Below are positions 41,988-52,572 of a DNA stretch of 56,721 nucleotides, piece after piece. Made by a program: the position numbers and the translations under genes. The notes beneath the pieces are model-generated. The model ran no database searches, was not told the DNA's origin, and saw only the letters and a list, made by a program, of their open reading frames with translations. Position 1 is the first letter of the stretch. Every line of letters begins with the position of its first letter. The stretch comes from a virus (taxonomy: Duplodnaviria; Caudoviricetes), in IMG/VR virus record IMGVR_UViG_3300027819_000014, positions 1 through 56,721 of that record, one strand, 5' to 3'.

Positions 41988-42132
41988 AGATCAGTTGAAG
42001 AAACTGGAATCCAAAACGGAGTCCCGGAGCGATCGGCAATTGGATCGGCTGAAAGAGTCCAAGTGGACTGGTCGGATTATTGGAGTATTGGTCATACTCT
42101 TGGTTGTGCTGGCGGTGGTGGTGGTGTTATGA
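41968..42132 (+). CDS. Small membrane protein
   Basis: C-terminal hydrophobic helix. Confidence 0.6.
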   Translation: MDEQKIRDQLKKLESKTESRSDRQLDRLKESKWTGRIIGVLVILLVVLAVVVVL

Positions 42133-42797
42133 CCGACCCAAAAGTGAAAGATAAATTCCCGCAGAAACGTACCTATCGTGGTGCTCCTGCCGTCACGGAA
42201 GCCGATACCTTACTGGATCTTCCGGGGTTACAGTTTTCTGAATCCGATTTGGCTTCTATCAATCACTCTTCGGCGGGGGAGAATTATGGGAGAATTTTGT
42301 ACACCTTGGCTTGTAGGTGCTTGGCTGGTTCTGGCGCCGCTAATGCCATTCTTGAAATCGGTTCTGGAGGAAGCAGCATTACTTTTGCCAAAGCATTGGG
42401 AAAGGTTGGTGATAGATCACCTAAACTTTGTTCCGTCGAGATTGATATCAACAAGCCGAGCTTCCATGATGTGGAGGTCGTGAGCAGTTTGGATGTGGAT
42501 TGGCAGGTGGTGCACGGAGACTCACTTAAGGTTCCGTTGGACAAGGTGCCGTTCGCGGCGGATATGCTGTACATAGACGGGGATCATGGCGGCGATCATG
42601 CCATTGGTGATTACCGGAAATTTGCACCTCTCGTACGCGCAGGCGGGCTGGTTGTGTTTGATGACTATCCGACCGCGCCGGGTGTGGTCAATGGGGTATC
42701 GGCGATTGTGGAGATACTTAAATCGGAAGGCGTGGTCGGGAAGGTGTTAACGTATAACACGCAGGATAGCAATTCGTTTTATGTGATTCAGAAGTAG
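42129..42797 (+). CDS. Class I SAM methyltransferase (Methyltransf_24-like)
   Basis: ILEIGSGG, HGDS, LYIDGDH, GGLVVFDDY. Confidence 0.88.
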   Translation: MTDPKVKDKFPQKRTYRGAPAVTEADTLLDLPGLQFSESDLASINHSSAGENYGRILYTLACRCLAGSGAANAILEIGSGGSSITFAKALGKVGDRSPKLCSVEIDINKPSFHDVEVVSSLDVDWQVVHGDSLKVPLDKVPFAADMLYIDGDHGGDHAIGDYRKFAPLVRAGGLVVFDDYPTAPGVVNGVSAIVEILKSEGVVGKVLTYNTQDSNSFYVIQK

Positions 42798-42824
42798 AGT
42801 TTCATTTCACAAGGAGTTTTCGCC

Positions 42825-43112
42825 ATGAAGAGCGAAATGTTTGATGTAAAAGTCGAAGAGTTCGAAGACCCCTCAATAGGTAGCCATTCTCGTAGATTAG
42901 TTATTCTGGCTAATTTGCGGAAGCGGACCAGGATAACGGAGGCGCAGCAGGCGCTTCAAGAACTGCATATCGTGATACGGACTCTGATCAAAGAATTTGA
43001 AACTTCAACTGCGTTGCATGTCACGGATGTGGATTTGATCCCGATGGATCGGATGGACGGGTCGGACTATACCGTTCCGGAGCCTATCGTTCGTATCATG
43101 GCGGGATTATGA
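42825..43112 (+). CDS. Hypothetical protein
   Basis: RBS AAGGAG. Confidence 0.65.
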   Translation: MKSEMFDVKVEEFEDPSIGSHSRRLVILANLRKRTRITEAQQALQELHIVIRTLIKEFETSTALHVTDVDLIPMDRMDGSDYTVPEPIVRIMAGL

Positions 43113-43348
43113 AAACCATCCCGCAGTGGCCGAAGATGCGTTGGTGTTTGCGGCGAAATGGTCAGATTGGCGGAATTATTTTACAAGGAGTTACGGTAAT
43201 AGAAGGGGCACAAATTTCTATTGATCAGTGTATCTCCCATACAGAGTTGGATCGTTCCCGGTTTCCGTTCTTGTACTGGTGTCGGGAAGAAAGGAAAAGA
43301 ATTCGCCATAAGATTAATAGTTGTATTATTGACAAGGTGTCAGCATGA
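43109..43348 (+). CDS. Hypothetical protein
   Basis: ATGA overlap. Confidence 0.55.
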   Translation: MKTIPQWPKMRWCLRRNGQIGGIILQGVTVIEGAQISIDQCISHTELDRSRFPFLYWCREERKRIRHKINSCIIDKVSA

Positions 43349-43487
43349 AGAAAATTATTATGGGTAAGATGTTTTATACATGGTTTAACAAGGAAAAAGT
43401 TAAGACACCGACGCTGGACGAGAAGACAGCAAAAATTGCTTTCAAGGCGGGTTTTGTTTTGGCTAAGCAGTGTGCCAGGGAATTTTC

Positions 43488-49980: not shown

Positions 49981-50032
49981 TGGGAAATGGGTCGGGGGAT
50001 TGTTTCTCCGACCCAAACTTAAGGAGAACGAT

Positions 50033-50344
50033 ATGGCAAAATATCGGAAAAAGCCTGTGGTGGTTGAAGCAGTTCAACTTCGGTGGGATACTTGGGATGA
50101 AATGTGCATTCATGCCGGAGTCGGGAAATTAAGTGAGGGCAAGCCAGAAGGTTGTTACGTGGATTTGAATGGTAATGCACTTCCTTCAGGTGGTGGTGCT
50201 GAGGGAGAACGCATGGGCCTACAAATACCAACTCTTGAGGGGTTGATGTTGGGTATTCAGGGCGATTGGATTATTCGTGGTGTGAAGGGAGAATTGTATC
50301 CCTGTAAGCCCGACATCTTCGATGCTACGTACGAGCCAGCATGA
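50033..50344 (+). CDS. Conserved phage protein (YRKKPVV.EA family)
   Basis: IPTLEG.M..GDWII.GV.GE.YPCKPDIF..TYE. Confidence 0.85.
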   Translation: MAKYRKKPVVVEAVQLRWDTWDEMCIHAGVGKLSEGKPEGCYVDLNGNALPSGGGAEGERMGLQIPTLEGLMLGIQGDWIIRGVKGELYPCKPDIFDATYEPA

Positions 50345-51174
50345 TGGCAGAAAAACAAGTATCGATCATTTTGGAAGATTGGGGGGTAAGGGAGCGCTTC
50401 CATACGTTGGACTGGTTGTCTAACCAAACGGTGCCTCGTGATCAGTATGAAATTATTTGGGTAGAGCTTTACTCACGTGTGCTGGATCATGTGAAGGCGA
50501 AAGTAGATCACTTGCTGACCTTAAATCAGGAGGGGCTGTATCATAAGCACAAGGGAATGAATGCGGGAATAGTAAAAGCAAGTGGTCGTATCGTGGTGAT
50601 GTGCGATTCGGACGCCGTTTACCCGCCGGAGTTTGTAGAGTCAGTGATCGGGCACTTCGCCACGGATCATAGAGTGGTCATGTATCATCAGCACCGCAGT
50701 TCGCGGGAGTACCCGGAAGGGGTCTCGGACTTCACGGAGATCGCCAGCCATGAGTTCTACGCCAAATGGCCTAACGTGGGCGCATGTTTAGCTGTATTAA
50801 GAAGGGACGCGATTGGGTTCGGCGGGGTGGATGAGCATGAGTTATTTCGCGGACTGATCTGCGGGCACAATGAGTTGGCGTGGCGGATGATTAATGCGGG
50901 TGTCCCAGAAGAGTGGGACAACAAATTGCTCACCTATCATTTCAAGCACCCCGGATCGGACGGCGGGAGCAAGCACGAGCGGTACATGAGTGAGCACCAT
51001 ATTGACATGCACAATTTGACTGGGGTGGATGCGTTTAGGGAAGGGCGGGTGATGCCTTTGTTAGAGAATCCAGATATTCATAAATTGCGGATGGCACAGC
51101 GGATCATCGGCACCGAGTTTGAAAAGAAATATTCCGTGTATCCTCCAGGCGATCCAAGAGGTAGAACGGCGTGA
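50341..51174 (+). CDS. Glycosyltransferase, GT2/GT-A fold
   Basis: L.NQT..YEII.V, N.GI..A.G.IV..DSD, GG.DE. Confidence 0.85.
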   Translation: MMAEKQVSIILEDWGVRERFHTLDWLSNQTVPRDQYEIIWVELYSRVLDHVKAKVDHLLTLNQEGLYHKHKGMNAGIVKASGRIVVMCDSDAVYPPEFVESVIGHFATDHRVVMYHQHRSSREYPEGVSDFTEIASHEFYAKWPNVGACLAVLRRDAIGFGGVDEHELFRGLICGHNELAWRMINAGVPEEWDNKLLTYHFKHPGSDGGSKHERYMSEHHIDMHNLTGVDAFREGRVMPLLENPDIHKLRMAQRIIGTEFEKKYSVYPPGDPRGRTA

Positions 51175-51554
51175 AGTTCTGCCCCATTCACTGGTCGGCA
51201 TTGCGCGATATGGTGATCGGTAAGGGTATGGGTGCGTTGATTTCTAAAGACGGGGCAGCGGCAGCAGATCGGTTGGTGGAAGAGTTGGAAGGTGTCGCGA
51301 CCCCGGCGACGTATGATCCACTGATGGCGTCGTACTGGATGATCATGGGGATGGCGATCAAGAACGGTGGACTGTACTTGATGGGGACAAAGCAGGGTGA
51401 CGGTGATGGGGAATATTGCCCGCTCTGCGAAGTTGAAGAGGCCGGATTGCGGGTTGAGAGCAAATCGGGGTTGGCTGACGAGTGGCTGGAAGGGTGCACG
51501 GATGCGGTATTGGTGTATTGCCGGGAACAAAATCTTTTGAGCAAACCTCAATGA
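51171..51554 (+). CDS. Hypothetical zinc-binding protein
   Basis: MKFC..HW..YDPLM..CPLC. Confidence 0.75.
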   Translation: MKFCPIHWSALRDMVIGKGMGALISKDGAAAADRLVEELEGVATPATYDPLMASYWMIMGMAIKNGGLYLMGTKQGDGDGEYCPLCEVEEAGLRVESKSGLADEWLEGCTDAVLVYCREQNLLSKPQ

Positions 51555-51871
51555 GATTATCTGCTGCATTTTCTGAAGAGGCCCATCGGTATCGGGTCTA
51601 TGATTACCCTGCGGGTGAGCAGCGACGCGATTTGTGTTGGGTTGATGATGTGACCAATCAAGTAGGGGTAGGGTTTGCGACTTGGGGTCGGGAGTACGTG
51701 TTCGAGGTAGAGCAGCGGAAACGGGTTCTGATTATTCCCGGTGTGTATTGGATTGCGTTGGACTTGCCCGAGGAGGAGGATTTTGTGCCGCCGTATGAGG
51801 TGAATTTAGAGAACGGGAAAGATGTTGTTTTCAATTGGAGCAGACCAAAGGATCCGGCGGTGGTTAAATGA
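51551..51871 (+). CDS. Hypothetical protein
   Basis: ATGA overlaps. Confidence 0.6.
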   Translation: MRLSAAFSEEAHRYRVYDYPAGEQRRDLCWVDDVTNQVGVGFATWGREYVFEVEQRKRVLIIPGVYWIALDLPEEEDFVPPYEVNLENGKDVVFNWSRPKDPAVVK

Positions 51872-52572
51872 CCTTCTCCCCTTACCCGCGCCCCGTTCGC
51901 GAGATACATCAGATTGAACTTTCATCGCGCTGTAATCTTAAGTGCGTTTATTGCCCCCATCACCCGAATTTACCCCGTACCAAGGAGGATATGAGTGAAG
52001 ACACATTCCGCCAATCCCTTGATCTTATTCAGCACTACGTACGGCAAGGAACGCAGACGGAACTCTCGCTCACGGGTATCGGTGAGGCTATGCTCCACCC
52101 GAGGTTCGTGGAGTATGCAACTCGCGCACGGGAGGTGGTCGGTCCACATCGACAATTGGTCATCACGACGAATGGACTTTTGCTAGATGAGAAGATGGCT
52201 GCGGCAATAGCCCCGTTACACCCGTTGGTGTTCATCTCATTGCACCGGCCGGAGAAGGCAGGGCCAGCGATTGAGATAGCAAAGAAGTATGAGATCCTAG
52301 CCGGGATAAATGCTAGTTTCGCTACATCATCTTTCGATTGGGCCGGATCACAGAAAAATTGGTTCGTGAGTGCGCCGAAGATACCATGTGAGTATTTAAG
52401 AAGTGGTTGGGCAGTAATTTTGGTGGATGGAAGAGTGGCGACGTGTTGTTTGGATGCGGACGGGTCGAGTACGATTGGGCGGGTAACGGATAATCCGGAA
52501 ACTCTGATGCTGAAGCCGTGGAAGAGTGAGAAAGGGGCAGGGTGTGAGTTTTGCCATATGAGTATTCCATAA
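51868..52572 (+). CDS. Radical SAM protein with SPASM/Twitch-like C-terminus
   Basis: CNLKCVYC, GIGEA.LHP, TTNG, C..DG.V..CC.D..C..C. Confidence 0.88.
   Translation: MTFSPYPRPVREIHQIELSSRCNLKCVYCPHHPNLPRTKEDMSEDTFRQSLDLIQHYVRQGTQTELSLTGIGEAMLHPRFVEYATRAREVVGPHRQLVITTNGLLLDEKMAAAIAPLHPLVFISLHRPEKAGPAIEIAKKYEILAGINASFATSSFDWAGSQKNWFVSAPKIPCEYLRSGWAVILVDGRVATCCLDADGSSTIGRVTDNPETLMLKPWKSEKGAGCEFCHMSIP

Follow-up and report, generated by a model that had tools for sequence, protein, structure and literature searches.

A two-gene core of a glycosyltransferase and a small radical SAM enzyme lies in the head operon of an uncultured phage lineage, with a variable set of putative sugar-tailoring enzymes and a possible role in virion glycosylation

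To our knowledge, virion glycosylation by virus-encoded enzymes is established only for a few mycobacteriophages and giant viruses, and we know of no virion-glycosylation system that uses radical S-adenosylmethionine (SAM) or cobalamin enzymes. For mycobacteriophages, virion glycosylation was reportedly described by Freeman et al. in Cell Host Microbe in 2023, with a methyltransferase also said to be involved. According to the accessible parts of PMC12619734 and PMC11256854, phage-encoded glycosyltransferases of these phages decorate capsid and tail-tube subunits. In chlorovirus PBCV-1, as the accessible part of PMC5408694 has it, the major capsid protein (MCP) carries a glycan of methylated deoxysugars that is put together by virus-encoded enzymes (e.g., A064R), among them soluble GT-A and GT4 glycosyltransferases and a glycosyltransferase-methyltransferase fusion, and mutations change the antigenic class. 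Here we analyze six enzymes encoded in the head module of a phage represented by a linear IMG/VR virus record of 56,721 bases (IMGVR_UViG_3300027819_000014, positions 1 to 56,721, hereafter the window; CheckV completeness 49%). Because relatives of this phage keep two of the six genes as a core in their head operons, we consider the particle to be probably decorated with an unusual sugar.

The six enzymes are a SAM-dependent methyltransferase of the Methyltransf_24 type (MT24), a glycosyltransferase of family 2 (GT2a), a ColD-like enzyme dependent on pyridoxal or pyridoxamine 5'-phosphate (PLP or PMP), a cobalamin (B12)-binding radical SAM enzyme, a second family 2 glycosyltransferase (GT2b) and a small radical SAM enzyme (Table 1). 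As had been predicted from the DNA letters, all six are real plus-strand open reading frames (ORFs) between the genes for a MuF-like minor head protein and a prohead protease/scaffold fusion, with boundaries at or within a few codons of those originally predicted; for the methyltransferase, the start once proposed (42129) is an internal ATG of a longer ORF. The small ORFs interleaved with them had been put at about 20; we count 16 other ORFs of at least 45 residues within 42129-52572 (one overlapping its neighbours) and ~25 from MuF to the protease. Neighbouring genes overlap by 4–7 nt at five junctions of the cassette, GT2a running 7 nt into the dehydratase gene. Terminator-like sites showed no excess (23 versus 17.1 ± 4.3 in shuffled sequences), and promoter-like sites likewise were not enriched.

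We gathered relatives from viral and metagenome contigs with the dehydratase, the B12 radical SAM enzyme, the small radical SAM enzyme, both glycosyltransferases and a 38-sequence GT2a alignment. The 70 loci with a GT2a relative formed 57 groups at ≥97% nucleotide identity of GT2a, the longest locus being kept from each group, and 20 of the kept loci span GT2a to the protease, one of them being the window's own phage (L093, a 116.9-kb contig that matches the window at 99–100% identity); our gene table covers 29 loci of at least 4 kb among the 70. The contigs are fragments, absences in short loci weigh little, and the tblastn thresholds of 1e-5 to 1e-6 miss distant glycosyltransferases and methyltransferases. 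Wherever a related locus extended to both MuF and the protease, GT2a lay between them, bearing out that the head-module location is no accident of this genome, and the gene order was the same, on one strand, in all 20 spanning loci: (MuF)-(M48-like peptidase)-GT2a-...-protease-cement-MCP. The small radical SAM gene was present in 18 of these 20 (missing in L086 and in the 1.5-kb L145), the M48-like peptidase in 12 (10 of the 12 loci reaching MuF), a 126-residue zinc-ribbon protein in 11, a B12 radical SAM enzyme in nine, an MT24-type methyltransferase in five, GT2b in four, a HemN-like radical SAM enzyme in two, and a nucleotide-sugar dehydrogenase and the dehydratase in one each, the latter in the window's own phage. 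Co-occurrence of all six genes across phages, which the original prediction had named as a check, is not what we found; rather than a fixed set, these counts describe a two-gene core (GT2a and the small radical SAM enzyme), a pair of the B12 radical SAM enzyme and GT2b, and single add-ons.

Outside the spanning set, a 6-kb stretch of L095 contains five of the six genes, ordered as in the window and free of the small ORFs (MT24 72% identical, GT2a 77%, dehydratase 79%, B12 radical SAM enzyme 91%, GT2b 60%); its dehydratase and B12 radical SAM genes are adjacent, and the contig stops before the place of the sixth gene. A window-type B12 radical SAM gene is followed by GT2b in every locus that extends far enough (L082, L095, L097, L117 and L124). 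The window's small ORFs are nearly all missing from L082, its closest relative, whose enzymes are 56–75% identical, and as they are not conserved in relatives we regard the interleaved ORFs as lineage-specific insertions. The core pair keeps its place across relatives whose MCPs are 47–87% identical, and the small ORFs do not. Five distinct relatives (G002, L092, L115, L116 and L124) also encode, after the capsid gene, a 989-residue protein in which a GT4 (GT-B) glycosyltransferase is fused to a class I methyltransferase; in G002 the fusion (22531-25500, the same as L161:3531-6500) lies between the MCP gene and a Mu gp36-like head-completion gene, and the structural operon of this 59.6-kb genome, rated 100% complete, retains GT2a and the small radical SAM enzyme as well as the fusion.

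Several neighbours of the six genes can be described here. Next to the B12 radical SAM gene, L082 (8604-10007), L097, L098 and L117 carry a HemN-like radical SAM enzyme (314 bits versus the HemN cut-off of 325), which could be either a genuine coproporphyrinogen oxidase-type gene or a class C methyltransferase; given the former option, we did not let it stand in for the dehydratase in our counts. The zinc-ribbon protein, which bears basic GG(K/R)ARA repeats, and the mini M48 membrane peptidase flank the GT2a/small radical SAM core in most relatives; the peptidase has two hydrophobic segments and a HELAH motif, and its nearest Atlas cluster is viral M48 (score 0.97). Upstream of a 60-residue peptide with two transmembrane segments and of the B12 radical SAM gene, the window encodes a 261-residue protein with 17 cysteines and a tandem GYIEGNRG repeat at its end, which had no Pfam, PHROG or NCBIfam match and no match in L082.

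GT2a belongs to a tight family of 140 homologues, the best 120 listed being 50–100% identical and nearly all of them metagenome sequences. Three aspartates of an acidic metal/nucleotide-sugar site (D111, D182 and D184) are invariant across 38 aligned sequences, and the AlphaFold2 model (pLDDT 89) has a plain GT-A fold. Its fold matches were tied at Z 17.3–16 over 212–237 residues, namely PcManGT (an archaeal mannosyltransferase), GalNAc-T1 (a protein O-GalNAc transferase), AvpGT (a nucleoside glycosyltransferase) and BcsA (a cellulose synthase); the top Foldseek matches were an O-antigen fucosyltransferase, TarP and TarS. GT2b, which is 60% identical to its L082 counterpart, has a DxD-type motif reading CDSDAV (CDADAV in the L082 copy). 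Neither GT2a nor GT2b has a transmembrane segment, which rules out a role as a GtrB-type bactoprenol glucosyltransferase of a GtrABC system, and the Pfam hits obtained for the window and for G002 included neither a GtrA flippase nor a GtrC partner. A protein search of isolate phages found no match to GT2a, and a pattern scan of one genome per species over 185,579 prokaryote species also found none, so GT2a gives no clue to a host or prophage.

By its sequence, the PLP enzyme is a ColD-like, PMP-dependent sugar 3-dehydratase with histidine in place of the catalytic lysine. Its best solved relative is ColD, a GDP-4-keto-6-deoxy-D-mannose 3-dehydratase (PDB 2gms), with an E-value of 2.9e-54 and an alignment over the full length, in which His185 of the window enzyme (AHH) pairs with ColD His188 (SHH), the first histidine of that ColD motif being the residue altered in the deposited mutant chains (H188N, SNH; H188K, SKH). 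Histidine is found at this position in 83 of 83 viral homologues, which form a separate viral clade. The enzyme scored 187.7 bits against ColD versus 117.4 against E1, and its 178.7 bits against the RfbH/E1 equivalog NF011936 did not reach the curated cut-off of 423. Because it has four cysteines, none of them as C-x-C, it lacks the [2Fe-2S] cysteine motif of E1/RfbH enzymes, which we take to have the layout known for E1; the histidine, the missing cysteine cluster and the ColD-like assignment had all been predicted and all held. The enzyme thus resembles ColD in its full-length match, catalytic histidine and lack of the Fe-S motif, and differs from it in its clade and in having no ColC-type partner in the window. 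A homologous His-type "aminotransferase" is encoded by T4-like cyanophages (38.8% identity).

The B12 radical SAM enzyme has the makeup of class B, with an N-terminal B12-binding domain (PF02310, 75.4 bits), a radical SAM domain (PF04055, 72.6 bits) and a CPYNCSYC motif (CX3CX2C). Its best solved match was AprD4 (E-value 3.7e-16); it shares the combination of B12-binding and radical SAM domains with AprD4/GenK-type enzymes of aminoglycoside pathways, but only the radical SAM half aligns with AprD4, and the best 25 of 29 NCBIfam matches were all far below their cut-offs (e.g., HpnJ, 145 versus 577.6 bits, and BchE, 141.9 versus 481). It is probably a sugar C-methyltransferase or an enzyme of some other sugar-carbon chemistry, methylation being the simplest guess beside dehydration and rearrangement. 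Only three isolate-phage records matched it. In a T4-like contig, an HNH-domain intein interrupts a B12 radical SAM enzyme (L055:3776-6055).

The small radical SAM enzyme has a CX3CX2C cluster motif (C22, C26 and C29) invariant in six of six aligned sequences and, at its C-terminus, C174-x13-G188-x4-C193 plus C226-x2-C229, invariant in six homologues, the protein ending at residue 234. This C-terminal arrangement fits the formula for one auxiliary cluster, CX9-15GX4C followed by CXXC. The original SPASM label did not survive: the Pfam SPASM match lies below threshold (E-value 0.0069; 17.1 versus 21.5 bits), and because there are only five C-terminal cysteines we regard the domain as truncated and twitch-like, as the term is defined in the accessible part of PMC9012708, rather than a full seven-cysteine SPASM. 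The best Foldseek match was BtrN (4m7t; E-value 4.6e-8, TM-scores 0.57/0.54, from a model with a pLDDT of only 66 built on six sequences), followed by anSME and ChlB (both ~1.6e-6), SkfB and SpeY, another twitch dehydrogenase. According to the accessible parts of PMC10337720 and PMC9012708, BtrN turns a cyclitol hydroxyl into a ketone and contains a single four-cysteine auxiliary cluster. The window enzyme is like BtrN and SpeY in length (234 versus ~250 residues), in CX3CX2C and in a single C-terminal four-cysteine cluster motif; it differs in its low identity (16–18%) and in being encoded in a phage head operon, whereas BtrN and SpeY come from aminoglycoside/aminocyclitol pathways. Going by the modelled fold, it is probably BtrN-like and hence a candidate sugar dehydrogenase. 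Roles as viperin (Viperin_w_prok, 37 bits versus a cut-off of 180), MoaA (46 bits versus 284) and a QueE-type enzyme (no QueE model among the best 25 of 33 NCBIfam matches) were rejected.

This enzyme has 676 homologues, and in isolate phages only five weak matches. A prokaryote pattern scan returned one close match, L165, a 10.7-kb contig binned to a bacterial metagenome-assembled genome, in which the small radical SAM gene, an MT24 gene and a GT4-methyltransferase fusion are adjacent; the remaining 64 loci of that scan match the radical SAM core only. In L084, an unrelated virus, a 30%-identical homologue sits beside a 4,6-dehydratase, a TylF-type O-methyltransferase and a TylC3-type C-methyltransferase.

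We saw how a precursor sugar might be made in relatives of the dehydratase, of which there were 95 in viral contigs; the best 80 were kept and the 1,523 ORFs of their loci clustered. Most are in T4-like contexts, with gp23, gp22, UvsW, UvsY and gp46 nearby, and in a cassette with a GHMP kinase (71 of the 80 loci), a short-chain dehydrogenase/reductase (SDR)-type epimerase/dehydratase (68), a B12 radical SAM enzyme (67 by clustering, 70 by tblastn) and E1-type thiamine diphosphate (ThDP) enzyme halves (52, with an acetolactate-synthase-type ThDP enzyme instead in four loci), in addition to a cupin, DJ-1, a phosphatase, RmlC and a cytidylyltransferase-like protein. GT2, GT1, GT10 and GT11 transferases and methyltransferases also occur in these loci; GT2a and the small radical SAM enzyme are absent from the T4-like contigs. 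Similar cassettes are found in the window's own lineage. On the minus strand of G002 (C1:40048-49786), an SDR, a His-type dehydratase (31% identical to that of the window), a kinase, E1 halves, DJ-1, a cupin and a B12 radical SAM enzyme are encoded adjoining RecT and YqaJ, 25 kb from the head slot and on the opposite strand. G001 (the L082 contig) encodes an SDR, a kinase, a nucleotidyltransferase and E1 halves, and L159 also bears a kinase/His-dehydratase/SDR/E1-like ThDP/DJ-1/cupin/B12 radical SAM-type cassette. In L100, a B12 radical SAM enzyme, an HddA-like kinase, a His-type dehydratase and an SDR are encoded inside the head slot itself, between GT2a and the small radical SAM gene. The predicted lack of a cognate reductase therefore stands for the window and fails beyond it: relatives encode a ThDP enzyme, an SDR, a kinase and a nucleotidyltransferase, either inside the slot or at other places. 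The relatives' kinases are nearest to HddA (104–144 bits versus 600) and the nucleotidyltransferase to HddC (54 versus 300), both of the GDP-heptose route; since these matches are far below the cut-offs, we treat a GDP-linked 6-deoxy-heptose or hexose as a sequence-derived lead, not a finding. The shared cassette hints at a two-carbon-branched or C-methylated dideoxy sugar, and its presence in unrelated phage groups (T4-like and Mu-head-like) suggests that such branched or methylated dideoxy sugars are common in viral metagenomes.

Virion glycosylation is our best reading of these genes, and we put its probability at roughly one half, the acceptor being read from gene position. With about the same confidence, we consider the six enzymes to be the transfer-and-tailoring half of a modular, phage-encoded glycan pathway in a Mu-type portal/MuF lineage. 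An activated, probably GDP-linked, 4-keto-6-deoxy hexose or heptose would be supplied by the rest of the genome (through a precursor cassette like those of the relatives) or by the host; the His-type PMP enzyme would strip its 3-hydroxyl, the B12 radical SAM enzyme would alter a sugar carbon, most simply by C-methylation, and the methyltransferase would O-methylate the sugar. GT2a and then GT2b would each attach a sugar, the twitch radical SAM enzyme would oxidise a hydroxyl of the sugar to the ketone with no need of NAD or oxygen, and the acceptor would be a protein of the head or another part of the virion, altered late in infection, during particle assembly. In a more specific version, which we find rather doubtful, the GT-A enzyme would place the sugar on a head protein during prohead assembly and the twitch enzyme would then oxidise the protein-bound sugar in situ, so that tailoring takes place on the acceptor instead of the nucleotide sugar, as in aminoglycoside pathways, and the swappable modules (the PMP 3-dehydratase, the B12 radical SAM enzyme with its second transferase, the methyltransferases and the GT4-methyltransferase fusion) would diversify the glycan between phages like bacterial O-antigen loci.

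In favour of virion glycosylation stand the constant head-operon place of GT2a across relatives, the GT4-methyltransferase fusion as another glycan enzyme among structural genes, its proximity to the small radical SAM gene in L165, the solubility of both GT2 enzymes, the absence of export, polymerase or ligase genes from the window and the scanned ORFs of G002, and that of a thymidylate-synthase-like gene from the window, G001, G002 and G003. The gene arrangements of L100, G002, L095 and L165 speak for a single pathway. A number of points weigh against virion glycosylation. The putative acceptor is read from gene position and not from the GT2a fold, in whose top matches protein-, lipid-, polymer- and nucleoside-directed GT-A enzymes tie within Z 1. 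The model of the small radical SAM enzyme is of low confidence, and a profile search against PDB sequences did not single out BtrN, since MoaA, ChlB, CteB, YydG and BtrN all scored E-values of 1e-7 to 5e-6; the NCBIfam matches all fell far short of their cut-offs. Scans of the window found no kinase, nucleotidyltransferase, 4,6-dehydratase or reductase, and its six frames held no SDR match; in other phages the precursor cassette occurs outside structural modules. The membrane M48-like peptidase accompanies GT2a, which cytoplasmic capsid glycosylation does not explain. The MuF-protease interval also carries unrelated cargo (a HAD nucleotidase-like gene, DUF551 and Cys-rich proteins, with an Acb1-domain protein nearby), so the slot may merely tolerate insertions. 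Finally, for cultured cyanophages, the authors of PMC12801897, in its accessible part, interpret gene clusters that include related dehydratases as modifiers of the host surface or of DNA.

That cargo underlies the alternative that fares best, though we think it unlikely, in which the slot is unlinked to the head, accessory genes are tolerated there, and what is made would be a soluble glycoside or else a modified target outside the virion, such as an anti-defence or host-takeover metabolite. It would account for the many unrelated, non-conserved ORFs of the interval and for the anti-defence or toxin-type domains encoded nearby in head modules (Acb1 in the window, an ADP-ribosyltransferase in L082), and the nearest solved relatives, BtrN and AprD4, do act on small-molecule aminoglycoside intermediates. 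It accounts less well for a core pair that holds its position over the range of MCP divergence given above while the small ORFs do not, and for the compact, complete G002, which retains GT2a, the radical SAM enzyme and the GT4-methyltransferase fusion in its structural operon.

Slightly less likely still, in our view, is remodelling of the host envelope, in which the unusual sugar would go onto host lipopolysaccharide (LPS), capsule or another surface glycan, e.g., as receptor masking that spares progeny from debris or infected cells. The cyanophage dehydratase/sugar clusters so read by their authors (accessible part of PMC12801897; annotated cluster NC_026927.1), the membrane M48-like peptidase as a conserved GT2a neighbour and the placement of the precursor cassette outside structural modules in T4-like contigs and in G002 all point this way. 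However, neither the window nor the scanned ORFs of G002 (53 + 13 of 74, about ten of under ~100 residues lying outside the Pfam scan) contain a flippase, polymerase, ligase, GtrA/GtrC or initiating transferase, both GT2 enzymes are free of transmembrane segments, all 20 spanning loci have the transferases at their constant place in the head operon, and the 185,579-species pattern scan held no GT2a relative.

Less probable than either is hypermodification of DNA, in which a modified base would be glycosylated before packaging and a radical SAM enzyme might supply the activated base instead of a dioxygenase. GT-A-fold phage enzymes that glycosylate 5-hydroxymethylcytosine exist (bioRxiv 10.1101/2023.12.21.572611, in its accessible part), late action before packaging suits the gene position, and the phage is rich in anti-defence genes (Tad4, the Acb1 domain and NADAR). 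No thymidylate-synthase-like hydroxymethylase (PF00303) was present in the window (~49% of its genome, searched in six frames), in G001, in the complete G002 or in G003, which agrees with the original observation that the window shows no base-hydroxylating enzyme; the six-frame search for TET/JBP in the window also gave no match and is uninformative, its TET control being equally silent. Scanned window and G002 ORFs had no DNA methyltransferase or TET Pfam hit. Judged by sequence, without alignment to those enzymes, neither GT2 has the DDD of the R...DDD...EDY/F motif given in the accessible part of bioRxiv 10.1101/2023.12.21.572611, and the 3-dehydratase, kinase, SDR and ThDP enzyme amount to elaborate sugar building, of which a term search found no mention in the accessible parts of DNA-glycosylation papers. 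Protein or peptide maturation, with the twitch enzyme acting on a side chain (as anSME, sactisynthases or epimerases do), GT2a glycosylating, and the M48 and zinc-ribbon proteins completing a system like those for RiPPs (peptides made on the ribosome and modified after translation), is equally improbable, for although anSME, ChlB, SkfB, CteB and YydG are among the fold or sequence matches, the peptidase and the 126-residue protein flank the core pair in most loci and the GT2-family peptide S-glycosyltransferase SunS matches the GT2a fold (Z 12.0), SunS ranked only 35th, BtrN is the best fold match and the sole one of similar size, a distant homologue of the small enzyme sits in a pure sugar cassette (L084), and precursor sugar genes lie between GT2a and the small enzyme in L100.

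The window as a whole divides into a left half, mostly on the minus strand, with replication and accessory genes (SNF2 helicase, DnaB-like helicase with an intein, Rep3-type initiator, Tad4, NADAR and an SLOG protein), and a plus-strand late module from ~26.5 kb to the window end. No near-identical DNA was found among isolate phages, and because the portal matches isolate phages at only 31–32% identity at best, no cultured relative is known. For the methyltransferase, likeness to PF04989 (CmcI/rhamnosyl O-methyltransferase) was weak (17.5 bits, under its cut-off). The MuF-like protein contains an insert of ~370 residues (378-746) with Hint_2 and a DUF559-type endonuclease domain, missing from the 425-residue MuF of L082, which looks like an intein with a homing endonuclease inside a head protein; the DnaB-like helicase is likewise split by an intein (Intein_splicing and LAGLIDADG_3). 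In L082 a protein with an ADP-ribosyltransferase domain is encoded directly before MuF (3509-4420), and this gene and the Acb1-domain gene of the window may represent packaged anti-defence cargo encoded in the head module. The Tad4 (anti-Thoeris), NADAR and SLOG/YAcAr genes make up a dense set of counter-defence type in the minus-strand half.

Table 1. Features of the window, in order of position, with the matches or remarks that characterize them
Feature	Coordinates	Strand	Match or remark
DnaB-like helicase with intein	3141-5705	-	Intein_splicing, LAGLIDADG_3
SLOG/YAcAr protein	7936-8355	-	
Tad4 domain protein	12500-13258	-	anti-Thoeris
NADAR domain protein	15107-15721	-	
Large terminase	28509-30062	+	late module
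Mu-type portal	32800-34395	+	late module
710-residue protein with Acb1 domain	35088-37220	+	anti-CBASS; between portal and MuF
MuF-like minor head protein	37207-40095	+	Phage_Mu_F E 1.9e-14, Hint_2, DUF559; left border of slot
Small M48-like membrane metallopeptidase	41242-41697	+	Peptidase_M48 E 1.7e-5
Methyltransf_24 SAM-dependent methyltransferase	42063-42797	+	PF13578 E 3e-12; variable add-on
GT2a, soluble GT-A glycosyltransferase	43470-44318 (likely start 43488)	+	PF00535 28.5 bits versus cut-off 23.3; core gene
ColD-like DegT-family PLP/PMP enzyme	44312-45481	+	PF01041 E 2.3e-65, residues 15-386
Run of small/unassigned ORFs splitting the cassette	45503-48156	+	includes DUF551 protein, 261-residue 17-Cys protein, 60-residue peptide with two transmembrane segments
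261-residue 17-Cys protein	47192-47977	+	
B12-binding (class B) radical SAM enzyme, 502 residues	48122-49630	+	PF02310 E 4e-21; PF04055 E 6e-20
GT2b, second soluble GT-A glycosyltransferase	50341-51174	+	PF00535 36.4 bits; DSD motif
234-residue twitch-type radical SAM enzyme	51868-52572	+	Radical_SAM E 2e-11; core gene
126-residue zinc-ribbon/basic-repeat protein	53274-53654	+	from sequence; usually between small radical SAM gene and protease
Prohead protease/scaffold fusion	53740-55647	+	phrog_976 E 2e-33, phrog_3894; right border of slot
Cement/decoration-like protein	55677-56141	+	Phage_cement_2, phrog_673; candidate acceptor
Major capsid protein, first 197 residues	56131 to window end (56721)	+	phrog_1005 E 2.5e-30; candidate acceptor

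If virion glycosylation is what these genes do, then the head operon of a large environmental lineage of phages encodes glycan machinery of their own (the families of GT2a and the small radical SAM enzyme counted above giving its scale, with 140 and 676 homologues), and this machinery uses oxygen-sensitive radical SAM and cobalamin enzymes. A modular, fast-changing tailoring set suggests selection on a feature of the particle surface, whether for defence evasion, adsorption, stability or protection from grazing. For enzymology, the His-type dehydratase clade, the minimal twitch enzyme and the pair of B12 radical SAM enzyme and GT2 are attractive targets.

As for described systems, we found no account in the open-access literature of a phage head module that combines radical SAM enzymes with glycosyltransferases. 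The mycobacteriophages that glycosylate their virions have actinobacterial hosts, and the accessible parts of the reports on them describe no radical SAM, B12 radical SAM or PMP dehydratase enzyme; the window genes, in contrast, lie between MuF and the protease. Chloroviruses are closer in the kinds of enzymes used, with soluble GT-A and GT4 enzymes and a glycosyltransferase-methyltransferase fusion, while differing in that they are eukaryotic giant viruses whose genes are early and include no radical SAM enzyme, the relation to the window enzymes extending only to fold class. T4-like cyanophages (Synechococcus phage ACG-2014f gp223-235, and S-SCSM2R) have in common with the window a His-type "aminotransferase" among epimerases, glycosyltransferases and methyltransferases, but their sugar clusters are not in a head-operon slot and their function is assigned by annotation. 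The uncultured T4-like contigs, finally, share the kinase-dehydratase-SDR-ThDP-B12 cassette with relatives of the window's lineage.

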